A DNA stretch of 64,000 nucleotides from an uncultured Flavobacteriales bacterium (GTDB lineage: Bacteria > Bacteroidota > Bacteroidia > Flavobacteriales_E > Vicingaceae). Numbering within the stretch: position 1 is the first letter of the stretch; each line of letters starts with the position of its first letter. The position numbers were made by a program, and so were the translations under genes. Positions 3,268-61,159 of this stretch are shown piece by piece. The stretch is taken from positions 3,585,396 through 3,649,395 of the forward strand of contig OY970294.1 of NCBI GenBank assembly GCA_963716125.1. The letters run 5' to 3'. The notes beneath the pieces are model-generated. The model saw only the letters and a program-made list of their open reading frames with translations, ran no database searches and had not been told where the DNA came from.

Positions 3268-3924
3268 TTAATTATTTATAACTGTATCCTTAGCAGTTGA
3301 AGCTAATGGTGCACTAGCAGCCTCGCTATTAATTTGAACTATTCCTTTTCCTTGCAAAGTTTCTACATAAGAAACGATTAACCATCTTTCTTCTTCTGTC
3401 AATTGAGAAGCATGAGGACCCATAGCATTTAAGCCATACATAATTGTATGATAAATGTTACCGGCTTTTAATTCAGACATTGACATTCCACCTCTTCTCG
3501 TTTTTGCTTGATCGGCATAAGAAGGGATAGCACTGTAAACCGGATGAGTAATACTTCCGTTTCCCTCTCCTTTAGGTCCATGACAATGTTGACAAAAAGA
3601 AGCGAATAATTCTCCCCCTTTTGCTAAAACTTCATCTGTAACTCTGAAAGGAATTCGTAATTTATTCCCTGCCTCTAAGTAACCATCTAAATTATTTTCA
3701 AATGGATATGGATGATATCCTCTTGCTATTGTATGTTCCACAGGTAGCCTAGAAGTTTGGGAATCTGGATATTCATAATCCACATATGCCTCAATAGCTG
3801 GTGATCTATACATATCGGGCATATATTCTACCCCAGGACTATTGGAATCTCCACAAGAAGACAACACCATACTACCGAAGAGTGCAGTGAATGTAATTTT
3901 TGTTATGATATTATTTCTTTTCAT
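3268..3924 (-). CDS. actE: alternative complex III subunit ActE (monoheme cytochrome c lipoprotein)
   Basis: Lipoprotein signal (LSSCGDS). It has a single CxxCH motif (CQHCHGPKGEG) and sits between actD and actF. Confidence 0.75.
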   Translation of the reverse strand: MKRNNIITKITFTALFGSMVLSSCGDSNSPGVEYMPDMYRSPAIEAYVDYEYPDSQTSRLPVEHTIARGYHPYPFENNLDGYLEAGNKLRIPFRVTDEVLAKGGELFASFCQHCHGPKGEGNGSITHPVYSAIPSYADQAKTRRGGMSMSELKAGNIYHTIMYGLNAMGPHASQLTEEERWLIVSYVETLQGKGIVQINSEAASAPLASTAKDTVINN

Positions 3925-3946
3925 TTTAATGCCTTATTCTAATTTC

Positions 3947-4475
3947 TTATCTAGCTTCAACTCTTATTGTACCTGTTGCTATCAACATTTCTTCCAATTC
4001 GGATTCTGTTTGATCATGGTTATCATGAACATGCAACTCCATCACAAATTTATCATTGGTTGTTTCAGGATAAGGATTTCTTGCTTTAACACCTGGTAAA
4101 GTCCAGTTTCTTAAAAAGTAAGTCAATGCCAAACCATGAGCTGCCATCAAAACTGTAAACTCAAAAGTAATAGGAATGAAAGCAGGTAAATTATCCATTA
4201 ACGTAAAATTGGGTTTACCACCTACGTTCATAGGCCAATCCTGAATCATAAAATACCACATACCTGTAAGCGCTAAAATCAAGCCTACACATCCATATAT
4301 AAATGAAGTGATTGCAATTCTTGTTGGTTTTATACCGATGATAGGATCCAAACCATGAATTGGGAAAGGAGAAAACACATCTGCGTATATATATACCTTT
4401 TGATACCAAATCTTTTGCTCCTTTTAGCAAGATTTGTTCATCATCGTAGGTTGCGTATATAACTTTATCAGCCAT
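3947..4475 (-). CDS. actD: alternative complex III subunit ActD (DUF3341 family), reading frame interrupted by a 1-nt indel near 4382-4385
   Basis: The N-terminus MADKVIYATYDDEQILLKGAKDLVSKGIYI is in one frame (from 4475). The rest, (A)DVFSPFPIHGLDPIIGIKPTRIAITSFIYGCVGL..., is in the -1 frame (6-frame ORFs 4215..4475 and 3947..4378). Joined together they reproduce the conserved ActD pattern G-x-x-I-x-(D/E)-V-(F/Y)-(S/T)-PFP-(I/V)-HGLD. Confidence 0.6.
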
Positions 4476-4487
4476 TTTTAAGTATTA

Positions 4488-5882
4488 TTAAATTTTTAAT
4501 GCTCGTGAGATTCCTTTTTGTAGTGCCTCTCCTGATGATTTTAAAATTGATTTTAATTCATTTAATGCCAAAACTGGGAAATACCTTGCAAATAATAAAA
4601 ACAATACAAAGAAAATTCCAATTGTTCCAATAAAACATCCTATATCTACAAATGTAGGGTGAAACATGGTCCAACTTGAAGGTAAGTAATCTCTACTTAA
4701 ACAGTTTACAATAATCATAAATCTTTCAAACCACATCCCAATATTTACAACAATTGAAATTATAAATGAAAGCATAATACTTGTTCTAACACTTTTAATC
4801 CAAAGCATGTTTGGAACAATAATATTACAAAGAATCAATAACCAAAATGCCCAAGCATAAGGTCCAGTAGCGGCTCCTACCGACATATAAGTGTTGCTTT
4901 CGTAGATAACTCCGGTGTACCATCCTATAAAAAATTCCGCAAAATAAGCTGTAGCTACTAAACCACCACATACTATAATTACGATATTCATATATTCGAT
5001 ATGCTTAATAGTAACATATTCTTCTAAGTTCAATACCTTTCTCATAATAATCAAAAGAGTCTGAACCATAGCAAATCCTGAAAATACAGCACCCGCTACA
5101 AAATAGGGAGGAAAAATAGTACTATGCCATCCAGGTATTACAGATGTAGCAAAATCCATGGATACAATAGAGTGAACAGAGAATACTAAAGGTGTAGCCA
5201 ATCCAGCTAACACTAAAGATACTTCTTCAAATCTACTCCAAGCTTTTGCATTTCCTGACCAACCAAAGGCTAATAAACTGTATACCTTTTTAGGAACTAC
5301 TTTTGTAACTTTATCTCTAATAGTAGCAAAATCAGGAATTAATCCAATATACCAGAATACTAATGAAACTGAGAAATACGTACTAATTGCGAACACATCC
5401 CAAAGAAGTGGCGAATTAAAATTCACCCAAAGTGATCCAAATTGATTAGGCAATGGAAATACAAAATAAGCTAACCAAATTCTACCCATGTGAATACCAG
5501 GCCAAACTGCAGCCATCATTACCGCAAAAATCGTCATCGCTTCTGCAGAACGGTTAATTGCCATTCTCCATTTTTGACGGAATAATAGAAGTACAGCAGA
5601 AATTAATGTTCCTGCGTGTCCAATACCTACCCACCATACAAAGTTGGTAATATCCCATGCCCAACCCACAGTTTTATTAAGACCCCAAGTACCTACTCCG
5701 GTTCCTAGTAAATAGAGTATACATCCTATTCCCCATAAAGCCATAATACTGGCGATGCCGAAAGCAATGTACCAAGAACGATTAGCTTTACCAATAATTG
5801 GTCTAAGCACATCATTAGTGATGTCATCATAGGATTTTTCTCCTAATATTAGTGGTGTTCTTATTGCTGATTCCTGATGCAT
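4488..5882 (-). CDS. actC: alternative complex III subunit ActC (NrfD/PsrC-like quinol-interacting membrane subunit)
   Basis: 464-aa polytopic membrane protein in position 3 of the act operon. Confidence 0.8.
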   Translation of the reverse strand: MHQESAIRTPLILGEKSYDDITNDVLRPIIGKANRSWYIAFGIASIMALWGIGCILYLLGTGVGTWGLNKTVGWAWDITNFVWWVGIGHAGTLISAVLLLFRQKWRMAINRSAEAMTIFAVMMAAVWPGIHMGRIWLAYFVFPLPNQFGSLWVNFNSPLLWDVFAISTYFSVSLVFWYIGLIPDFATIRDKVTKVVPKKVYSLLAFGWSGNAKAWSRFEEVSLVLAGLATPLVFSVHSIVSMDFATSVIPGWHSTIFPPYFVAGAVFSGFAMVQTLLIIMRKVLNLEEYVTIKHIEYMNIVIIVCGGLVATAYFAEFFIGWYTGVIYESNTYMSVGAATGPYAWAFWLLILCNIIVPNMLWIKSVRTSIMLSFIISIVVNIGMWFERFMIIVNCLSRDYLPSSWTMFHPTFVDIGCFIGTIGIFFVLFLLFARYFPVLALNELKSILKSSGEALQKGISRALKI

Positions 5883-32530: not shown

Positions 32531-32544
32531 TTTCTATAATTGCA

Positions 32545-32608
32545 CCTCTTTGTTCCCGCACGATTGCATCGCGTGTTTAAATTCAAAAAACAATTTAGAT
32601 AAATTTAT
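32545..32608 (+). repeat. REP-like element copy A: hairpin CGCACGAT-TGC-ATCGCGTG plus ~40 bp conserved flank (…GTGTTTAAATTCAAAAAACAATTTAGATAAATTT)
   Basis: About 65 bp nearly identical to copy B at 35586..35648, in the same orientation. The core palindrome is shared with copy C (inverted) next to the RAYT gene. Confidence 0.7.
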
Positions 32609-35585: not shown

Positions 35586-35648
35586 CCTCTGTTCCCGCGC
35601 GATTGCATCGCGTGTTTAAATTCAAAAAACAATTTAGTTAAATTTTCT
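35586..35648 (+). repeat. REP-like element copy B (hairpin CGCGAT-TGC-ATCGCG plus conserved flank), 5' of the RAYT gene
   Basis: Near-identical to copy A. It lies 62 bp upstream of the RAYT start. Confidence 0.7.
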
Positions 35649-35709
35649 ACTCAAAGATATCTATTTTGTATCAATGAATTAGTTAATTTAGATAGCAAAT
35701 TATTTAGGT

Positions 35710-36273
35710 ATGAGCAGAAATTACAAGTTCAAAAATCCTAAGGGGCTTTACTTTGTCAGCTTTGCAGTAGTAAAATGGTTGGATGTTTTTACAAGGAATG
35801 AGTATAAAGATGTAATGCTTGATAGTTTAAGGTTTTGCCAAAAAGAAAAAGGATTAGAAATAATTGCTTGGTGTATCATGACCAATCATGTTCATTTAAT
35901 CTTTAGAACCACCAACGATTTTAAACCTGAACAAGTTTTAGGAGACATTAAAAGATTTACGAGCAAAAAAATTGTAAAAGCTATAGTAAATAATCCAAAA
36001 GAGAGTAGAAAAGAAAATTTACTACAAGTATTTAAAGCAGCAGCTAATGAATCATCCAATGTTAGAGATTATCAATTTTGGAGACATGACAATAAACCAA
36101 TAGAATTATGGAGTAATAAAGTAATTGCTCAAAAAGTAAAATACATTCATCAAAATCCAGTAGAAGCCGGATATGTTTACTATGCTAAAGACTATATATA
36201 CAGCAGCGCAGCAGATTATGCTGGCGAAAAAGGATTAATTGATAATATTATTTTAGCAGAGTTAAATTTATAA
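35710..36273 (+). mobile_element. REP-associated tyrosine transposase (RAYT; IS200/IS605 TnpA-like HUH Y1 transposase)
   Basis: 187 aa with the HUH motif (IMTNHVHLIF) and a C-terminal catalytic-Tyr region (AGYVYYAKDYIYSS). It is flanked by inverted REP hairpins (copies B and C). Confidence 0.75.
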
Positions 36274-36280
36274 CCAATTA

Positions 36281-36306
36281 ATCACGCGATGCAATCGCGC
36301 GAGAAC
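36281..36306 (-). repeat. REP-like element copy C (inverted orientation), 8 bp after the RAYT stop
   Basis: ATCACGCGATGCAATCGCGCGAGAAC is the reverse complement of GTTCTCGCGCGATTGCATCGCGTGAT. This matches the core of copies A and B. Confidence 0.7.
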
Positions 36307-48352: not shown

Positions 48353-48733
48353 AGGAGCAAGAGATATTACTCAAAAAGGCTAAAAGTTTTTTAGAGAAAA
48401 AATAGTAGAATCTCATATTAATTCCGCTTGTAAAAGAGCTGGAAAACTTTCTAATTACAACGTAAATCCTTTTTTATATAAGTATTTAGCAAACTTTCTC
48501 AAAGGAAACGATAATCCAAGAAGTATAGCTGAAGCACTAGTTTTACCAAGTGTTTTAGGTTCTTCAATAAACACTTCTTTTGGAATGAGAATACAAGAAC
48601 GAATTATTTGATGGTTTTGGACCAACTACACCAGGTATCGATATTGAATTTATTGATGCAGTTGAAGGTAGAAAAAAATATTGTCAGTTAAAATCAGGTC
48701 CAAATACTATAAATCACTTTTCATAATGCTTGT
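48353..48733 (+). pseudogene. small conserved-looking gene (~126 aa) broken by two single-base indels in homopolymer runs (A6 at 48407-48412; TTT at 48617-48619)
   Basis: Three consecutive frames read MKKKEQEILLKKAKSFLEKK | IVESHINSACKRAGKLSNYNVNPFLYKYLANFLKGNDNPRSIAEALVLPSVLGSSINTSFGMRIQERII | DGFGPTTPGIDIEFIDAVEGRKKYCQLKSGPNTINHFS. Each frame switch coincides with a homopolymer. Confidence 0.4.
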
Positions 48734-48810
48734 TTACAATTTATAGACACCTTAAAGTTAACAAATACTGCTTAATTAAAAAATTGCCGAAATTTATTAG
48801 GTTTATTCTT

Positions 48811-49170
48811 CAAACTTCGTAACCAATAGATAACAAGCCGATTTGAACTAACAAAAACTTGCAGGTTTTGTCTCCGATTAATCAACTTAGTTAATGCAAT
48901 ATTTTTCAGCCCGTCCGCCAAAGTGCAACGAAGGAGGATTGTCAATTGCTCTTAACTACCGCCTAAACCTGCAAGGTTTAACTTGCAAACATCTCAACTG
49001 ATTGATAACAAGAAGTAACTAAATAACAAAACCTTGCAAGTTTTTGCTTTGATAAAACATTTTAGTAAATATATTAATTTCAATTATCCAACTTTCCTGC
49101 AAATTCTAATTGTACATTTTCAAGCCGTCCGCCGAAGTGCAACGAAGGAGGATTGTCAATTGCTCTTAAC
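48811..49170. repeat. tandem repeat array 1 (~1.7 units, period ~214 bp) of a novel intergenic repeat family
   Basis: Partial unit, then a full unit, then 12 bp. It shares the box CCGCC(A)AAGTGCAACGAAGGAGGATTGTCAATTGCTCTTAAC and the paired near-palindromes AAACCTGCAAGGTTT / AAACCTTGCA(A/G)GTTT with array 2. Confidence 0.8.
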
Positions 49171-50733
49171 AATTTTCTCCGTACTAATTAAATTCCCTCT
49201 TGTATCTGTTATTCTTAAAAAATAAACTCCTGATTTAAGGCTAGACACATCAATTTGAGTATCTGAATAATTAGAATTTTGCTCTTGCACCAATCTACCC
49301 ATTTGATCTAATAAGGTAAAATGCAATTGCACTGGTCTGTAATACTGACGAACTGTAAAATAATCTTTTGTAGGATTAGGAAAAACCTTTATTTCTTCTG
49401 CTTTTTTAATAGGTTCATTGATACCAACAGGAGTTGATTTTCGAGGCCAATAAGCTATACTATCTATATAAGTTACTTTTGCAAAACTGTGTAGATTATT
49501 GTTGTTATCATATTCTGTGCACTGCCCAGTAACCCATAAGCCGCCCTTATCATCTTTTTCCATTCGCCTTACATAACAATAATCATCAAAAGGTAAATAA
49601 TACGACCAATGCAAATCTCCTTTTTCATTTAAACCATAAATAACTGCGTCAGTATTCCATGGCATAGGGTCAACTAAATAGAATCTTTCAGTTAAAGCGG
49701 TCACATATAAATTGCTATCATATTTTAAAATTTGTTGAGTACCACCGGAACCATACTCTGCTGTATCATTTTTTCCATATATTTTTGATACTCCTCCTTG
49801 CTCATTATAAGGGGCATCAATTTCCCGAATTCCAATAGCCAAGTCCCAATCACGTGCAGGATTTGGGTTCGTTTTGGGGTTAAAAATATAATATGGATTA
49901 AAAACTCCACTCATTACCATAAAGGTAGAATCTGAAATAGGAGCCAAAGCTCCCATAAATGTCCCTACTGATGAACCTAAAGTTATATGGAAAGTCCCAT
50001 TAATCTCCATTAATCTATTAGAACCAGGAATTATATTTAAATTCGAATCTATAGTTGTTATACCATTTCCATACAAATTAGATTGACTAACTGAATCTCT
50101 AAATACGTCACTACTTAATCCAGTAAAAGTATTAGCTCTTTTATTCCAAATTAAATCAAGAAGAAGACACGGTGAACCCAAACATTCAGATTCTAATCGA
50201 TTAACGATATTTAAATTAGAATCTAATTCTAGCAATACCATTGTAGATTTATTAGCAATATCAATTTTGGAGAGAGAAAGAAAGTAGTTCTCATTAATTT
50301 TTTTCACAAATAAGATTCCAATTTGTGAATAAGGAGTATCTATATAAACTTTATTAGAAAAATCATCGAGATTCCCCATATTATAATACAACCTATACTC
50401 TTGTTTGGAGGTGTCTGCTACGGTTCCAAATTTTAAAAAAGTATTCTGGTAAGGTATAATAAAATTCGTAAAATTGACTAAATTGGTATCAATAATAGTA
50501 GAATCTATCAAAGTTACATTTTTATTTGCAAACCTTTGAATTTCATACTGATTATAAAAAACATTTGATGTAAGATTTGATGTCTTCCCGTAAACAAACA
50601 ATGTATCTTTATTTAAGTAAGTATTTAAAATGGAATAATTTAATTTGTTAATTGAATTAATGGTTGTCCAAGATTGGGCAAATACTTGTAATGTAAAACC
50701 AAAACCTAATAAAACAGTAATTAGATATTTCAT
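49156..50733 (-). CDS. T9SS C-terminal-domain secreted protein of unknown function
   Basis: 525 aa with a signal peptide. The C-terminus (VFPNPTKDYFTVRQ…GVYFLRITDTRGNLISTEKIVK) is a T9SS CTD. Its last codons and stop lie inside repeat array 1. Confidence 0.7.
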   Translation of the reverse strand: MKYLITVLLGFGFTLQVFAQSWTTINSINKLNYSILNTYLNKDTLFVYGKTSNLTSNVFYNQYEIQRFANKNVTLIDSTIIDTNLVNFTNFIIPYQNTFLKFGTVADTSKQEYRLYYNMGNLDDFSNKVYIDTPYSQIGILFVKKINENYFLSLSKIDIANKSTMVLLELDSNLNIVNRLESECLGSPCLLLDLIWNKRANTFTGLSSDVFRDSVSQSNLYGNGITTIDSNLNIIPGSNRLMEINGTFHITLGSSVGTFMGALAPISDSTFMVMSGVFNPYYIFNPKTNPNPARDWDLAIGIREIDAPYNEQGGVSKIYGKNDTAEYGSGGTQQILKYDSNLYVTALTERFYLVDPMPWNTDAVIYGLNEKGDLHWSYYLPFDDYCYVRRMEKDDKGGLWVTGQCTEYDNNNNLHSFAKVTYIDSIAYWPRKSTPVGINEPIKKAEEIKVFPNPTKDYFTVRQYYRPVQLHFTLLDQMGRLVQEQNSNYSDTQIDVSSLKSGVYFLRITDTRGNLISTEKIVKSN

Positions 50734-50798
50734 ATCATAAATTTATAGATAAAAACACCCAATTAATTATTCGTAATTAATTGGGTGTTTAAAATTAA

Positions 50799-51818
50799 TT
50801 AATAATATTGTATAAGTTGAGCATATTGAATTACTAACACATGTTCGCCTTTATTACTACTTGTAATAGGGTCAGTATAATTTTCACCATACAAATAATA
50901 ATTAATTTGTCCTATTAATGGATTCGATGGAACAACATAGGTAGTCCAAGTGGGAGTTAAATCATTTGCTACAGCTTTTGCACCGGGCTCATAGATATTG
51001 TTCAAGTCAGATTTTGAAAGGCAATCGGCACCGCTATTTCCATTCCATATTCTACTATCATTTCTACCTTTTTCATATCTTGTTTTTATATCATACCACA
51101 CTATATCACATACACAAGTAAAACCAGGTGAGCCTAACTGACTATTGCAGTCACTATTCATCAACATTGATTCCATTCTTAGAGCTGCATCGCCAGCATA
51201 CATAGCTGAACAATCTCCTCTTTTTTGATATGCTTTCCAATCATTATCAAAGCTACAAAATGGAACAAGAGGCTCATAATCATATTTCATATCTACCAAA
51301 ACTGAAATTTTATCTGTAGGGCTAGATCCATAATTATCTAAACCTTCAAAATCAATAACAGATATAAAACTTGAACTTCCATGAGTAGCATAAAAAGTAG
51401 AATTCGTAAATGCATCTTCTACTTCATCTTTTATGGTATTAAAATAGTCTAAACTTTGTCCATCTAAGCTAAAAACACCTTCAGATTCCGTGTAATCTAA
51501 ATCTACTTCAATTTCTAATCTTTCACTGTAATAAGATTTTTTATCAAAGTTTCCAATGTCAGTATTTACAGCTGTTTCTAACAATTTTAGAGTAGTTTCC
51601 AAGTCAAATGTAGCACTCGGTTCATCTCCGTTTAATAAATCCTTTGTATGAGTTATAATATCTGATTCAGTTATTCCTCCAGCCTTATCATTATTCCCTG
51701 CTATACTTTTTGAAGCAGTTGCATTTCCGTTAGGCGAAATTCCTGCATCTTTTTCACATGCAGTAAATATTGCCATTGTGGCTATTAAAAAGCCCACGAT
51801 AATTTTATTCTTTTTCAT
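50799..51818 (-). CDS. hypothetical lipoprotein with a Cys-rich C-terminal half
   Basis: Lipoprotein signal (LIATMAIFTACEKD). Many Cys in the C-terminal half (CSFDND…GDCSAMYAGD…DCNSQLG…FTCVCDIVWYD…GADCLS). Confidence 0.55.
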   Translation of the reverse strand: MKKNKIIVGFLIATMAIFTACEKDAGISPNGNATASKSIAGNNDKAGGITESDIITHTKDLLNGDEPSATFDLETTLKLLETAVNTDIGNFDKKSYYSERLEIEVDLDYTESEGVFSLDGQSLDYFNTIKDEVEDAFTNSTFYATHGSSSFISVIDFEGLDNYGSSPTDKISVLVDMKYDYEPLVPFCSFDNDWKAYQKRGDCSAMYAGDAALRMESMLMNSDCNSQLGSPGFTCVCDIVWYDIKTRYEKGRNDSRIWNGNSGADCLSKSDLNNIYEPGAKAVANDLTPTWTTYVVPSNPLIGQINYYLYGENYTDPITSSNKGEHVLVIQYAQLIQYY

Positions 51819-51981
51819 CGTTTTATATTATTAAGGGCAGATTGCCCAAGTTAATTAAAATTTCTTATTTAGCGCTAAACGAGAAAATATTTTATGGAAC
51901 AATGTTAAGAAAGCTAAAGGGATACGAAAAGGTATTAAATACAAAGCTTATGCATATTTTACAAAACATTTGTACAAAATA

Positions 51982-52012
51982 CAATTGAATGGTACTTAAT
52001 ACCATTTAATTG
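51982..52012. promoter_or_regulatory. 31-bp palindrome CAATTGAATGGTA-cttaa-TACCATTTAATTG, with a second dyad AAATACAA-atcaa-TTGTATTT 15 bp downstream; candidate operators in the divergent promoter region
   Basis: 13-bp inverted-repeat arms with one mismatch. It is flanked by repeated ACAAAATACAA motifs, ~160 bp upstream of the XRE-family regulator gene. Confidence 0.4.
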
Positions 52013-52173
52013 CACAAAATACAAATCAATTGTATTTATTCTTTTTTAAAATGCGCCTCTAAAAGTCAGAGTATACAAGTAAATGATAAATTTTATTTAA
52101 AAAAATAGCCCCCCCTATAACAACCTAATATAAAATACGTTATATTTATTGTAATAAATTAAAATTCTAAGCT

Positions 52174-52470
52174 ATGCTTCAAATTTCCCAAAATATCAAA
52201 TTCTTTAGATTGTTACGCAATTTAAAACAATCGTACATCTTTGAAAAACTTCAATTAAATCCTAGAACATATAGTAAGATTGAATTGGGAACAAAATCTC
52301 CAACTGTAGATGAAATGGCCATATTGGCAGAAATTTTTAATATCACTGCTCTCCATCTAAAATATTTCGACCCAAATTTGACCATAAAACTAAGTGAGCA
52401 AGCTGTTAACTTAAAAAGAAACCATAATTATGAAGATGAGCAAATATTGGAAATGTTGAATCCGGAATAA
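52174..52470 (+). CDS. XRE-family helix-turn-helix transcriptional regulator
   Basis: 98 aa. HTH_XRE pattern (LRNLKQSYIFEKLQLNPRTYSKIELGTKSPTVDEMAILAEIFNI). Confidence 0.7.
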   Translation: MLQISQNIKFFRLLRNLKQSYIFEKLQLNPRTYSKIELGTKSPTVDEMAILAEIFNITALHLKYFDPNLTIKLSEQAVNLKRNHNYEDEQILEMLNPE

Positions 52471-52472
52471 AT

Positions 52473-52860
52473 AATTGCTCTTAACTACCGCCGAAACCTG
52501 CAAGGTTTTACCTACAAACTTCAGAACTGATAGATAACAAGCCGACATGAACTAACAAAACCTTGCAGGTTTTTGCTTCGATAAAACACTGTAATTTCAA
52601 TTATCCAACCGTCCTGCAAATTCTAATTGTACATTTTCAATACGCCCGCCGAAGTGCAACGAAGGAGGATTTTCAATTGCTCTTAACTACCTCCGAAACC
52701 TGCAAGGTTTTACCTACAAACTTCAGAACCGATAGATAACAAGCCGATATGAACTAACAAAACCTTGCAGGTTTTTGCTTTGATAAAACATTTTAGTAAA
52801 AACTGTAATTTCAATTATCCAACCGTCCTGCGAATTTGACGAAGGCAAATTCTATGTCAT
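52473..52860. repeat. tandem repeat array 2 (~1.9 units, period ~202 bp) of the same novel repeat family as array 1
   Basis: It starts 3 bp after the XRE gene stop. Units 52475..52676 and 52677..~52860 are >90% identical to each other and ~80% identical to array 1. Confidence 0.8.
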
Positions 52861-52891
52861 TCATTAATAATTAACAATTTACAATTTACAA

Positions 52892-53839
52892 TTAAAAATT
52901 ATAAAAGTTTTCAATTTTCTCCGCCAAAAAGCTAGATAATTTTTCATAAGACTCTATTGTCCATCCAGCTACATGAGGAGATAAAATTACATTTTCAAAA
53001 ACAATTAAATCTTGAAAAACTACTGGTAAATCTTCCTTGCTGAGGTTCTCAAAGGAAAGACTTTCAAATTCTAATACATCCAAACAAGCGCCTAAAACTT
53101 TTTTAGATTTTAATCCATTTACCAATGCTGAGGTGTCTAAACATTTGCCTCTTGCGGTATTGATTATATAAAATGGCTTCTTGCAACCATCTATAAATGA
53201 ATTGTTAAAATAATAATGTGTTTCATCAGTATAAGGTAGATGTAGACTCACTACATCTGATTTTTCTTGAAGTTCTGTTAATGAAACTTCTTTAACAAAT
53301 TCATTTCCAAAGCCATTTTTGTATTTGTCGTGGGCTAATATTTCTACTCCAAAACCTTTCAATCGTTCAGCAAAAGCTTGTCCCATAAATCCATATCCGA
53401 TTATACCAACAGTTTTACCTTTAAGCTCTATACCTCTGTTTTGTTCCCGTTGCCACAATCCATTTCTTACTTCTTGATTGCCTCTTGCAATATGATTGAA
53501 TAAACTTAGCAACATGCCTAATGCATGTTCAGCCACAGCATCTCTGTTTCCTTCCGGAGAATTAAAACATTGAATATTTAGCTTTTTTGCAGTTTCTAAA
53601 TCAATATTTTCCATGCCTGCCCCTGAGCGAGCAATCCATTTTAAGTTGGATGCTTTTTGAAGCAATTCTGCATCAAATTTGAATTTGCTTCTGATAACCG
53701 CACCTTCATATTGATCAATAATGGTTTCAATTTCCACAGGTGTTAAATCTACTTTCCAATCACATTGAAGACCTATTTTTTCTAGTCGTTCTTTTAAAAT
53801 AGGATGAACAGAATCAATGAAAATAACTTTCTCTTTCAT
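52892..53839 (-). CDS. D-isomer-specific 2-hydroxyacid dehydrogenase family protein (NAD-binding)
   Basis: Rossmann motif GIIGYGFMGQAF and the catalytic-domain pattern of the PGDH/GDH family. Confidence 0.8.
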   Translation of the reverse strand: MKEKVIFIDSVHPILKERLEKIGLQCDWKVDLTPVEIETIIDQYEGAVIRSKFKFDAELLQKASNLKWIARSGAGMENIDLETAKKLNIQCFNSPEGNRDAVAEHALGMLLSLFNHIARGNQEVRNGLWQREQNRGIELKGKTVGIIGYGFMGQAFAERLKGFGVEILAHDKYKNGFGNEFVKEVSLTELQEKSDVVSLHLPYTDETHYYFNNSFIDGCKKPFYIINTARGKCLDTSALVNGLKSKKVLGACLDVLEFESLSFENLSKEDLPVVFQDLIVFENVILSPHVAGWTIESYEKLSSFLAEKIENFYNF

Positions 53840-60466: not shown

Positions 60467-61159
60467 CTATTTTTTAGAATCATCTGCTTTTTTAGCAGTT
60501 GATTTTTTTGCTTCTTTTTTTGCAATTAAAGCTTTTGCTTGGCTTACCCATTCTTCGTTTGCAATTGAATCTTCACTGATACCATCAATAGCATCTGCAA
60601 TTTTTTCAATGTCTTTTGAAGACAAGTTAACAATTTGTTCAAAAGTAGTAAATCCTACTTTTTCCAATTCTCCTTTATAAACTGGGCCAATTCCTTTGAT
60701 TTTTGTCAAATCATCAGCTTTTTCAGTTTTTGGAGCTGCTTTTTCCTTTGTTGCAGTTTTTGGTTTTTCAGCTTTCACTTCTTCAGTTTTTGCTGCTGGC
60801 TTTGAAGCTGGCTTTGAAGCTGGCTTTGAAGCTGCTTTTTTCAAAGTACCATTACCAATAGCTTCAATTTGAATTTTAGTCATGAACTCACGATGTCCAT
60901 TCTTTTTTCTGAAGCCTTTTCTTCTTTTCTTTTTGAAGACGATCACTTTGTCGCCTTTAAGGTGTTCTAGAATCTTTGCAGATACTAACATACCTTCTAC
61001 AGCCGGGGCGCCAACAGTTATTTTGTCTCCATCGCCAGTCAAAAGGATTCTATCAAACTCAACTTTTGAGCCTTCATCTCCTTCTAAGCGATGTACAAAA
61101 ATCTGCTGATCTTTTTCTACTTTGTATTGTTGCCCTGCTATCTCTACGATTGCGTACAT
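60467..61159 (-). CDS. rplU: 50S ribosomal protein L21 with a ~125-aa Lys/Ala/Pro-rich C-terminal extension
   Basis: N-terminal ~105 aa is L21 (MYAIVEIAGQQYKVEKDQQIFVHRL…). It is followed by KPASKPASKPAAK repeats and a C-terminal helix-hairpin-helix-like segment (IKGIGPVYKGELEKVGFTTFEQIVNL). Confidence 0.85.
   Translation of the reverse strand: MYAIVEIAGQQYKVEKDQQIFVHRLEGDEGSKVEFDRILLTGDGDKITVGAPAVEGMLVSAKILEHLKGDKVIVFKKKRRKGFRKKNGHREFMTKIQIEAIGNGTLKKAASKPASKPASKPAAKTEEVKAEKPKTATKEKAAPKTEKADDLTKIKGIGPVYKGELEKVGFTTFEQIVNLSSKDIEKIADAIDGISEDSIANEEWVSQAKALIAKKEAKKSTAKKADDSKK

Follow-up and report, generated by a model that had tools for sequence, protein, structure and literature searches.

Tandem repeats of about 200 nt in a Flavobacteriales genome are probably REP/REPIN-like doublets amplified with flanking DNA

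REPINs, or REP doublets (BIMEs), are mobilised by RAYTs (TnpA-REP) in E. coli and Pseudomonas fluorescens (PMC3116915, PMC3337134; PDB 4ER8). In REP clusters the doublet is reiterated in tandem with flanking DNA; published descriptions of these clusters deal chiefly with the GTAG and CGTC families of Proteobacteria, Bacteroidetes appearing only among the hosts of CGTC repeats (PMC3733652). Among the Class 2 TnpA-Y1 proteins, subclass 2.4 shows REPs in frame within tnpAREP and 'double foot' REPs, and subclass 2.6, from Bacteroidetes, shows atypical flanking hairpins; a central deletion in an inverted REP dimer yields a single long hairpin (Quentin et al. 2018, PMC6006769). We analysed a 64-kb stretch of DNA from an uncultured Flavobacteriales bacterium (64,000 nucleotides, hereafter the window), in which a first-pass annotation had suggested that a repeat unit is a structured RNA, a MITE-like element or a recombination site. 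We propose, with a probability of roughly 0.6, that the unit of about 200 nt is a non-coding REP/REPIN-like doublet amplified in tandem with flanking DNA, and not an RNA gene. The anatomy of the units, the distribution of the family, its association with RAYT genes, the insertion status of the arrays and the lack of RNA-family evidence are shown here, whereas the homology of the window copies to this family, the mechanism on single-stranded DNA involving a RAYT and the inactivity of the copies are inferred.

The palindrome AAACCTGCAAGGTTT and its reverse complement had seven matches with at most two mismatches in the 64-kb window, compared with 0.31 expected, and none of 100 shuffled windows reached seven. 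All seven fell within array A (48767-49170) or array B (52474-52862), and each array comprises approximately two units of about 200 nt. The palindromes, of 15-16 nt, have a 6+3+6 organisation (dyad AAACCT-N3-AGGTTT) and are shorter than typical REPs, which measure 20-40 nt. The core of the doublet is AAACCTGCAAGGTTTT, followed after 47 nt by AAAACCTTGCAGGTTT.

The first unit of array A, A0 (48767..48944; nhmmer with the unit profile, E=7e-50, and alignments), is a decayed copy. Its first palindrome, at 48790-48804, is degenerate (AAATTTATTAGGTTT), the second, at 48853-48869, carries a 1-nt deletion, and an internal segment of about 35 nt is missing; the GC-rich box is located at 48923-48938. 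The originally reported unit, A1 (48945..49158; E=1.3e-66), starts with ATTGCTCTTAAC and has its palindromes at 48965-48979 and 49029-49043 and its GC box at 49137-49152. It is followed by a terminal 12-nt stub (49159..49170), again ATTGCTCTTAAC, corresponding to the beginning of a further unit. In array B, unit B1 (52474..52675; E=2.9e-66; DNA fold z=-3.87) begins 3 nt past the stop codon of an XRE gene and shows an exact 16-nt inverted pair at 52494-52509 and 52557-52572, with a GC box at 52654-52669. Unit B2 (52676..52862; E=1.4e-55) has an exact inverted pair at 52696-52711 and 52759-52774; a deletion of about 32 nt in its 3' part removed most of the GC box, and a degenerate version of the 12-mer (ATTAATAATTAAC) closes the unit.

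The general description in the first-pass annotation was in part confirmed. The 6-bp stem with a 3-nt loop is present in B1 and B2, and so is the exact reverse-complement pair of palindromes that each unit was said to contain (16-mers, 47 nt apart); A1 and A0 do not have it. In A1, the unit for which the exact pair was reported, palindrome 2 is AAACCTTGCAAGTTT, with one mismatch that produces a C.A opposition on the plus strand and G.T on the minus strand. The element with 16-bp inverted ends exists, but its length is 79-81 bp rather than 82, and the start-to-start spacing of the palindromes is 63-64 bp, about six helical turns. The spacer between them, announced as conserved, is nearly identical in B1 and B2 but clearly diverged in A1. 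Indels do occur 3' of palindrome 2, with sizes of 12 nt (B1 versus A1 and B2) and about 32-35 nt (B2 and A0) instead of 11-40 bp. The GC box GTGCAACGAAGGAGGA is identical in A0, A1 and B1 and cannot be called invariant, given that B2 has lost most of it.

The four units share 84-93% pairwise identity, in a mosaic pattern, and are recent copies of one another. Because there are only four of them, all recent mutual copies, their conservation says little about selection. Independent short-read contigs break at the array repeats. The approximately 120 nt outside the doublet had no relative in 108 loci fetched from public databases (nhmmer), the GC-box key AAGTGCAACGAAGGAGGATT had no exact match in public genome contigs, and neither the GC box nor the rest of the unit had a relative at the same loci of sister genomes. 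This part of the unit remains unexplained by the REP/REPIN reading.

On a DNA fold, the inverted 16-bp pair reached -14.2 to -15.2 kcal/mol, with z = -3.6 to -4.0 relative to shuffled sequences. A helix so much more stable than shuffled controls is what would be expected if each unit were a small structured RNA, either as tandem sRNA genes or as a cis-acting 3'UTR element, in which the helix and the GC box were functional. The identity of the GC box in three units, the location of the arrays at transcript 3' ends and the A1 substitution, which leaves a G.U pair on the minus strand, point in the same direction. However, the fold of the whole unit was unremarkable (z = -1.15 on the plus strand and -0.15 on the minus strand), and only the 16-bp long-range helix stands out; the GC-box segment gave z = -0.31 and +0.56, and neither the 47-nt loop nor the GC box is structured. 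A search of Rfam 15 matched no family to the unit. A tRNA outside the arrays was the only hit in the window at the gathering threshold, and relaxing the cutoff to E<=10 across 48600-53000 yielded only miRNA-hairpin artefacts (19.7 bits, for thresholds of 75-100). None of the 16 helix pairs changed on both sides, a count with almost no power for four recent copies; three varied on one side, four departed only through unpaired cells, and the changes in A0 and A1 were one-sided or pair-breaking. The GC box is largely missing from B2, no homologue of the unit was found outside the source genome or at the same loci of sister genomes, and the identity of recent copies is not evidence of selection. 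The structured-RNA interpretation is thus not supported, and we consider it very unlikely.

The AAGGAGG motif of the GC box had been likened to a Shine-Dalgarno sequence. This reading finds no support, as no conserved ORF follows the box and, in the only open frame, the substitutions between units are mostly non-synonymous. Three small ORFs (49034..49225, 52563..52739 and 48772..48945) were rejected as coding sequences, as the frame is lost between units (202 and 214 nt) and the changes are mostly non-synonymous. Neither array contained a match to the intrinsic terminator consensus (a short G+C-rich hairpin followed by a T run). TTTTTG comes after the long hairpin on the plus strand only, and the hairpin may serve incidentally as a terminator.

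The genes on both sides of the arrays are informative about their origin. Array A overlaps the end of a gene on the minus strand (49156..50733) encoding a 525-aa protein with a T9SS C-terminal sorting domain (Pfam Por_Secre_tail, 1.3e-13). On that strand the stub 49159..49170 reads GTT AAG AGC AAT (V K S N), followed by TGA, and forms the end of this ORF; the last two codons and the stop are supplied by array A. The homologues of this T9SS-cargo protein end in ...STEK[IV][IVL]K[LF]*, and in sister genomes the gene is followed by ordinary terminators, with no array. A paralogue elsewhere in the genome (P0122) has an identical C-terminal third, including VKSN. Array B lies between two convergent genes, one for a 98-aa XRE-family HTH protein (52174..52470, plus strand; Pfam HTH_3) and one for a dehydrogenase. 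In the sister genome L111, about 25 nt separate a 76%-identical XRE orthologue from the dehydrogenase gene, this gap contains no repeat, and no array palindrome was found within 20 kb of the orthologue. Since the sister genomes are without either array, both are lineage-specific insertions between convergent genes.

The same comparison bears on the suggestion that the units are recombination sites. The 3.3-kb segment between the arrays was evaluated as a mobile cassette bounded by the 13-mer AATTGCTCTTAAC, a reading that was dropped when the repeat-free L111 proved to have orthologues of the XRE gene and of the 5' part of a lipoprotein gene in place; both are therefore native. Integron attC sites are recognised by an imperfect inverted repeat R''-L''...L'-R' with RYYYAAC / GTTRRRY cores bounding gene cassettes. 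In the arrays all copies of CTCTTAAC are direct and no unit contains the inverted form GTTAAGAG, and the attC-like reading was rejected.

The proximity of the XRE gene, which ends 24 nt from the first palindrome, raises the question of whether a dimeric DNA-binding protein such as this regulator uses the 15-nt palindromes as operators, and both the perfect dyad AAACCT-N3-AGGTTT and the spacing of 63-64 bp would suit such a role. The XRE orthologue of L111 nevertheless has no such palindrome within 20 kb, the sites are downstream of genes and not in promoters, and the real XRE promoter region is occupied by a different set of 20-nt repeats. Furthermore, the existence of a longer local palindrome was rejected on the basis of 103 distinct doublets from public loci, in which the positions flanking the 11-mer were complementary less often than by chance (0.20 versus 0.39). 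An operator function appears extremely improbable.

The palindromes were then placed in a broader context using the window's own two 11-mers as a search pattern, ACCTGCAAGGT-N35-65-ACCTTGCAGGT. There were 76 matches in one-genome-per-species contigs, for a calculated chance expectation of about two for the genome scan, and 32 in metagenomes, giving 108 loci, mostly from Flavobacteriales with some from other phyla, and mostly extragenic. Open reading frames of at least 120 aa cover 85% of these loci, yet they contain only 24 of the 113 doublets, the other 89 being outside. In 52 of the 113, the doublet is a two-hairpin REPIN of the form a-loop-b' ... b-loop-a', with one G.T wobble per hairpin; others are of the form b'-a...a'-b, with sharp element ends. 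An ORF resembling a RAYT was found in 20 loci, usually within about 100 nt of the motif, which is often present on both sides. All 11 aligned proteins matched the NCBIfam 'REP-associated tyrosine transposase' (best E=2e-18), and their profile matched only TnpArep in the PDB (4ER8). The RAYT-like proteins next to the core ACCT[G/A]CAAGGT have 30-57% mutual identity, and further copies of the motif occur elsewhere in the RAYT-carrying loci at 0.4 per 10 kb, about 40 times the chance level. The core in inverted arrangement is a widespread, mostly extragenic repeat of Flavobacteriales that behaves as a REP/REPIN.

The 16-mer AAACCTGCAAGGTTTT of the window is identical to RAYT-adjacent REPs in two loci (L010 and L064). 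Elements with nothing but the outer pair (a...a'), as in the window, were seen immediately 3' of genes in Pedobacter, a Cytophagaceae MAG and one metagenome contig, and another was present in a Flavobacterium MAG (L057). A doublet repeated in tandem with its flank was found with a period of 345 nt in L008 and of 370-390 nt in L062, L103 and L107, and in L084 and L087 arrays of doublets adjoin RAYT genes. As the search key consisted of the window's own 11-mers, their presence in the matches holds by construction; that the window copies are homologous to the RAYT-linked family is an inference and not proven. The doublet probably belongs to, or derives from, the family with core ACCT[G/A]CAAGGT.

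The window copies possess only some of the properties of REPs and REPINs. They are short palindromes (15-16 nt, 6+3+6), they form in B1 and B2 a perfect 16-bp inverted pair with a 47-nt spacer, and they are extragenic, both arrays being located between convergent genes with only the 12-nt stub overlapping the last codons of an ORF. The GT[AG]G (or CGTC) foot is absent from them on either strand. Their arms, ...CTGCAAGG... and ...CCTTGCAGG..., show GCAG/CTGC where canonical members have GT[AG]G, and they are devoid of the inner or outer partner motifs (b, b') with which canonical members form two short hairpins, ACCTTGTAGGT pairing with ACCTGCAAGGT through a G.T wobble. No copy was found outside the arrays in the 64 kb, for which the density in other hosts (0.4 motifs per 10 kb) predicts only about 2.5, nor in approximately 90 kb of sister-genome sequence; these stretches give no sign of a dispersed population of the palindromes in this lineage. 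No RAYT flanked by the array palindrome was present within the 64-kb window. No target-site duplication was seen at the 80-bp inverted repeat (flanks CCGCCG / TTGCTT), as expected for Y1/HUH elements.

This last observation is also relevant to the MITE-like reading of the first-pass annotation, which is near the mark insofar as the element is small, non-autonomous and bounded by terminal inverted repeats, but does not extend to a classical MITE. Movement of the 80-bp inverted repeat by a DDE transposase acting on its 16-bp ends would account for the perfect terminal repeats, the small size and the AT-rich interior. The inverted repeats are however without a flanking direct repeat (…CCGCCG | AAACC…GGTTT | TTGCTT…), the repeated block is the whole unit of about 200 nt and not the 80-bp repeat, no parent IS with such ends exists in the window, and each presumed terminal repeat is itself palindromic, as in REPs. 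Every public match near a transposase has a Y1/HUH RAYT-like gene. We regard a classical MITE as highly improbable.

One objection to the REP/REPIN reading is that segmental duplication alone could generate the arrays without a transposase; the repeated part is the whole unit, and the sole RAYT of the window has a different REP. According to this alternative, the 3'-end hairpin region of the T9SS gene (terminator or 3'UTR, including the last codons) was duplicated in tandem, and illegitimate recombination then placed a single copy of the block in the adjacent convergent intergenic region, the likeness of the stem to the Flavobacteriales REP core being a coincidence or a convergence. It is consistent with the presence in all units of GTTAAG, which matches the native V-K codons ending this gene family, with the paralogue sharing the VKSN end, with the mosaic identities, which suggest recombination or gene conversion, and with the absence of GT[AG]G and of dispersed copies in the 64 kb and the 90 kb or so of sister sequence. 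The right flanks of the arrays are weakly similar, including a 12-mer CAATTTTCTCCG, but this similarity concerns low-complexity AT-rich sequence. A plain local duplication would leave the identity of AAACCTGCAAGGTTTT with RAYT-adjacent REPs in L010 and L064 to coincidence or convergence; the inverted arrangement and the spacing fit the REP family, outer-pair-only doublets lie at gene 3' ends in several other Bacteroidota, and the terminators that follow T9SS gene homologues are quite unlike this region. We consider it unlikely, while giving it appreciable weight.

A RAYT gene is present in the window, at 35710..36273 on the plus strand. It encodes a 187-aa protein with NHVH and YIHQNP motifs that matches NCBIfam NF047646 (88.7 bits, cutoff 80) and Pfam Y1_Tnp (1.3e-9), and its 90%-identity cluster includes proteins named RayT. 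The gene is flanked on the left by a GC-rich REP, GTTCCCGCGCGATTGCATCGCGTG, with a 6-bp stem and a TGC centre (35591..35614, plus strand), and on the right by the same REP in inverted orientation (36283..36306, minus strand). A solo intergenic copy of the left flank, of about 60 nt including the REP and with one mismatch, is located at 32540..32600 (plus strand). The host lineage thus carries a REP/RAYT system whose transposase, judging by sequence, is not the cognate of the array palindromes. BLAST searches with the units gave no match at 32.5, 35.6 or 36.3 kb. A relationship between the GC box and the GC-rich REP was rejected for lack of a convincing alignment, and so was an origin of the unit from a RAYT gene fragment, as neither tblastn nor a RAYT-profile HMM gave a match inside the arrays.

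The GC-rich REP and the array palindromes share a common design, a 6-bp stem with a TGC/GCA centre. A sister genome shows the centre polymorphism TTG[C/T]A, which is also that of the family ACCTTG[C/T]AGGT. We may speculate that the whole unit of about 200 nt, and not only the 80-bp doublet, is a module which the host RAYT (Bacteroidota-type, subclass-2.6-like) can still process, an idea that we hold to be quite unlikely. Such a module would be amplified in tandem at gene 3' ends, pass in one piece from one convergent intergenic region to the next and rewrite gene termini, as in the ...VK-SN-stop of the T9SS gene, and the shared TTG[C/T]A centre would be what is recognised or cleaved in two REP stems of very different sequence.

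Returning to the REP/REPIN-like doublet, its history can be pictured from the mechanism established in E. coli and Pseudomonas. The inverted copies would fold into a hairpin on single-stranded DNA, which the RAYT would bind and cut, allowing the doublet to be copied to new sites without target duplication. The doublet and about 120 nt of flanking DNA would have been reiterated to give two-unit tandem arrays, as in REP clusters, and one array block would have been copied between the two neighbouring 3'-3' intergenic regions, array A replacing the last residue and the stop codon of the T9SS-cargo gene. With GCAG/CTGC in place of GT[AG]G, no cognate RAYT in the window and decay evident in one unit, the window copies are most likely an immobile, inactive relic. 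Their present role, if any, would be incidental, for example as a 3'-end hairpin terminating or stabilising convergent transcripts.

For the source genome, this reading accounts for an odd repeat, for a region that breaks assemblies and for the altered C-terminus of a T9SS-cargo gene. To our knowledge, work on REP systems has dealt almost exclusively with Proteobacteria; the family with core ACCT[G/A]CAAGGT is widespread and tied to RAYT-like genes in Flavobacteriales and a few other phyla. Annotation pipelines can mistake such palindromes for sRNAs, MITEs or 'questionable CRISPRs'. In a text search of the literature the core was encountered only in a CRISPR table, where CTCCTGCAAGGTTTCCAAAACCTTGTAGGTG is listed as the 'questionable CRISPR' CRISPR-9 of F. 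branchiophilum FL-15 (PMC5395568 Table 4). This automated call with three repeats shows the same a-loop-b' hairpin at short intervals and is not a CRISPR array.

Compared with MITEs, the window element is likewise small, non-coding and provided with terminal inverted repeats, but it lacks a target-site duplication, its arms are palindromic and the transposases associated with it elsewhere are Y1/HUH. The host RAYT, with its NHVH and YIHQNP motifs, its 187 aa and its short stem-TGC-stem flanks, fits the description of subclass 2.6, to which it is assigned by motifs only, and the central deletion of an inverted REP dimer described in the same work may be one route to the a...a' form of the window (Quentin et al. 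2018, PMC6006769). The window copies differ from REPINs in the missing GT[AG]G foot and G.T-marked short hairpins, in having no cognate RAYT in view, and in their confinement to two adjacent loci, always inside a larger 200-nt repeat. They resemble REPINs in being extragenic, clustered, located at gene 3' ends and free of target duplication, and the identical core adjoins RAYT-like genes in other genomes. REP clusters (PMC3733652) have exactly the architecture seen in arrays A and B as well as in L008, L062, L103 and L107, and the two arrays would illustrate how a REP-type doublet can carry its flanks along when it is reiterated in tandem.

The ~200-nt repeat occurred four times in the window, split over two arrays. 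Array A comprised unit A0 (48767–48944), unit A1 (48945–49158) and a 12-nt stub, ATTGCTCTTAAC, ending at 49170, and array B comprised units B1 (52474–52675) and B2 (52676–52862). A search of the 64 kb with a unit-derived profile found no further units. In independent short-read data, contigs of this genome broke exactly at the arrays, which shows that the repeats are real. The 15-mer AAACCTGCAAGGTTT or its reverse complement occurred seven times with up to two mismatches (0.31 expected), always inside the arrays. The first-pass annotation, largely right but in need of correction, had described two palindromes per unit as exact reverse complements. This was true of B1 and B2, in which 47 nt separated the two 16-mers, while A1 had one substitution in the second copy, and in A0 the first palindrome had decayed (C>T and G>A substitutions) and the second was one base short. 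The AAGGAGG-bearing GC box GTGCAACGAAGGAGGA, described as invariant, was the same in A0, A1 and B1 but mostly deleted in B2. Pairwise identity between units was 84–93%, with a mosaic pattern: the units are recent copies with sequence exchange among them. Their identity is therefore no evidence of constraint, and the conservation taken as typical of functional RNA or recombination sites carries little weight as a sign of selection. The pentamer TGCAA/TTGCA was in modest excess in the units (48767–49158 and 52474–52675; in B1 four occurrences for 0.79 expected, P ≈ 0.009). Both palindromes and the GC box (AAG-TGCAA-CGA) are centred on it, as are a TCC-TGCAA-ATT site and the REP of the host's own REP-associated tyrosine transposase, or RAYT (GA-TTGCA-TC).

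The proposal of a structured RNA was not borne out. Rfam gave zero matches at gathering thresholds, and at E ≤ 10 only miRNA-precursor models picked up the bare hairpin. Folded as RNA, the whole unit showed no gain in stability over shuffled sequence (+ strand, z = −1.15; − strand, z = −0.15). The sole exceptional fold was the long-range 16–17-bp helix taken as DNA (z = −3.6 to −4.0), and the fold analysis revealed no structure in the 47-nt loop or the GC-box segment. The four-unit alignment, which has almost no power in this respect, contained zero compensatory changes in the helix, the differences being one-sided or pair-breaking. No homologue of the unit was present in 108 related loci or in sister genomes, and 185,579 species genomes contained no exact match to the GC box. 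As for the supposed Shine-Dalgarno-like AAGGAGG, no conserved ORF lay downstream, and open frames across the units lost phase.

The window is part of a Flavobacteriales chromosome, with housekeeping genes, and its proteins have their nearest named relatives in Vicingaceae and Salibacteraceae MAGs and in Acidiluteibacter (Cryomorphaceae). Both arrays sit between convergent genes: array A has an MFS gene (+) on one side and a 525-aa T9SS-cargo gene (−) on the other, and array B is bordered by an XRE-family gene (+) and a 2-hydroxyacid dehydrogenase gene (−). The closest sister genome (locus L111), whose dehydrogenase is 85% identical, has the XRE orthologue (76%) and the lipoprotein gene start in place, and its dehydrogenase–XRE gap is only ~25 nt, with no repeat in it. 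In other genomes, homologues of this T9SS gene ended in ...STEK[IV][IVL]K[LF]-stop followed by ordinary terminators; the window gene ended in ...STEKIVK-SN-stop, with VKSN-stop within the 12-mer of the repeat. From these comparisons we infer that both arrays were inserted at gene 3' ends specifically in this lineage, and that array A rewrote the end of the T9SS-cargo ORF. The 13-mer AATTGCTCTTAAC at the inner edge of both arrays had initially led us to suspect that they bounded a 3.3-kb cassette; this was rejected, as the XRE gene and the lipoprotein gene start are native in the repeat-free L111 locus.

The 12-mer CAATTTTCTCCG, encoding ...EKI..., was found to the right of both arrays, directly after the repeat at the T9SS gene end (49170–49181) and, at array B, ~38 nt further along, at the dehydrogenase gene end (52911–52922). 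It may be a microhomology used in copying the block, or a chance occurrence in AT-rich sequence. A paralogue of the T9SS-cargo protein encoded in this genome outside the window (P0122, 528 aa) was 66% identical overall, with full or near-full identity over the C-terminal ~130 residues, the repeat-derived VKSN ending among them. This suggests a recent gene conversion or duplication, which may have included a further array copy. Between the MFS gene and array A lay a frameshifted gene remnant (48455–48725), a fragment of which, GPTTPGIDIEFIDAVEGRKKYCQLKSGPNTINH, matched the Pfam type II restriction endonuclease family RE_EcoO109I above its cutoff (2e-5); the locus is variable and decaying. Between the lipoprotein and T9SS-cargo genes, the two 17-bp arms of a perfect inverted repeat (AAACACCCAATTAATTA/TAATTAATTGGGTGTTT, 50753–50790) enclose a 4-nt loop; this was the sole terminator-like site in a scan of 48.2–53.1 kb. 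The divergent lipoprotein/XRE promoter region held 3.8 partly inverted copies of a ~20-nt unit, TACAAATCAATTGTACAAAA (51956–52037), which are more plausible XRE operators than the array palindromes. The top score in the tandem-repeat scan of the window was a 12-nt repeat, GCTGGCTTTGAA, at 60795–60838 (3.8 copies, 96% match).

Public sequences were scanned with the core pair ACCTGCAAGGT-N35-65-ACCTTGCAGGT, which returned 76 loci from one-genome-per-species contigs, where about 2 chance matches were calculated, and 32 from metagenomes. The hosts were chiefly Flavobacteriaceae, with many loci in Salinimicrobium, and also Pedobacter, Cytophagaceae, Saprospiraceae, a Caldilineaceae MAG, an Anaerolineales genome and Marinimicrobia-like MAGs. 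Writing a for ACCTGCAAGGT, b for ACCTACAAGGT and a prime for the reverse complement, most matches had a regular architecture. The common form was a-loop-b' ... b-loop-a', two inverted hairpins with one G.T wobble each, which matches the anatomy of a REPIN (an inverted pair of REPs); a second group was b'-a ... a'-b, the elements sharply bounded and the spacer ~55 nt long. The doublets avoided ORFs (24 of 113 lay inside long ORFs, though these made up 85% of the loci), and additional motif copies occurred in other parts of the loci at ~40 times chance. Twenty loci encoded a 180–240-aa protein with a HuH motif (NHFH) and a YxxxNP tyrosine motif, its gene usually less than ~100 nt from the doublet and often with motifs on both sides. 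All 11 of the RAYT-like proteins aligned matched NCBIfam NF047646 'REP-associated tyrosine transposase', and the only PDB match of their profile was E. coli TnpA-REP (4ER8). A RAYT flanked by its own palindromes, with scattered extragenic copies, is the signature of REP/RAYT systems (PMC3116915, PMC3337134, PMC6006769). A 'questionable CRISPR' listed for F. branchiophilum (PMC5395568) is a hairpin of this ACCT[G/A]CAAGGT family, which, across Flavobacteriales, is a more useful by-product than the window arrays themselves.

The RAYT profile search also gave an unexpected match in the window, at 35710–36273 (+ strand). The 187-aa product passed the NCBIfam equivalog cutoff for REP-associated tyrosine transposases (88.7 bits for a cutoff of 80), and the gene was flanked on both sides by inverted GC-rich REPs, GTTC[C/T]CGCGCGATTGCATCGCGTG (locus 35591–36306), with a solo ~60-nt copy of the left flank 3 kb upstream (32540–32600). 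Its motifs (NHVH, YIHQNP) and length fit the Bacteroidetes subclass 2.6, whose flanks were described as 'atypical secondary structures' (PMC6006769). In sister genomes with only 77–80% dehydrogenase identity, the identity of this RAYT protein was at least 90%. The REPs of the host RAYT and the array palindromes differ in sequence but share a design (CGCGAT-TGC-ATCGCG and AAACCT-TGC-AGGTTT), and RAYT-flanking copies in a sister genome varied between TTGTA and TTGCA at the centre, the same polymorphism as in ACCTTG[T/C]AGGT. This parallel may serve as a pointer only, not as evidence that the host RAYT acts on the arrays.

The nearest known kind for the arrays is a REP/REPIN doublet, locally amplified with flanking DNA; the suggested MITE-like element was correct in spirit. 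Window copies share with the family the exact 11-mer, the inverted arrangement and the spacing, and two RAYT-adjacent copies (L010 and L064) share the entire 16-mer. Similar outer-only a...a' doublets were found directly 3' of genes in Pedobacter, a Cytophagaceae MAG and a metagenome contig, and another, gene context aside, in a Flavobacterium MAG. The main rival, which we consider less likely, is that a hairpin region at a gene 3' end simply underwent segmental duplication and resembles the REP family only by coincidence. The window copies also depart from the family. Canonical members have the b/b' partners, whereas these have only a degenerate ACCTACAAAC after the first palindrome; GT[AG]G is on neither strand; and, unlike the family, they are without exception embedded in the 200-nt unit. 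The remainder of the window and ~90 kb from sister genomes contained no further doublet copies. The REP/REPIN reading covers the doublet, and leaves ~120 nt per unit, including the GC box and the pentamer excess, unaccounted for. The window doublets are probably inert now. According to Quentin et al. (PMC6006769), an inverted REP dimer that loses its centre becomes a single long hairpin, which would be one route to the a...a' form.

REP clusters have been described to reiterate a doublet along with the DNA around it (PMC3733652), and such reiteration was also seen in L008 (345-nt period) and in L062, L103 and L107 (370–390 nt). In L008 (Salinimicrobium sp. HB62, 3650–4700), a ~1-kb non-coding region repeats a two-hairpin REPIN and its flanks, interleaved with a 7-nt microsatellite (CTGACCA-like), in parallel to the window arrays. 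In L107 (4776–6041), L103 (6013–7268), L062 (2645–3900) and L041 (3894–4676), the 5' ~115 codons of a gene and the doublet are reiterated two further times with a 370–390-nt period. An in-frame REP insertion in tnpAREP was already known from subclass 2.4 (PMC6006769).
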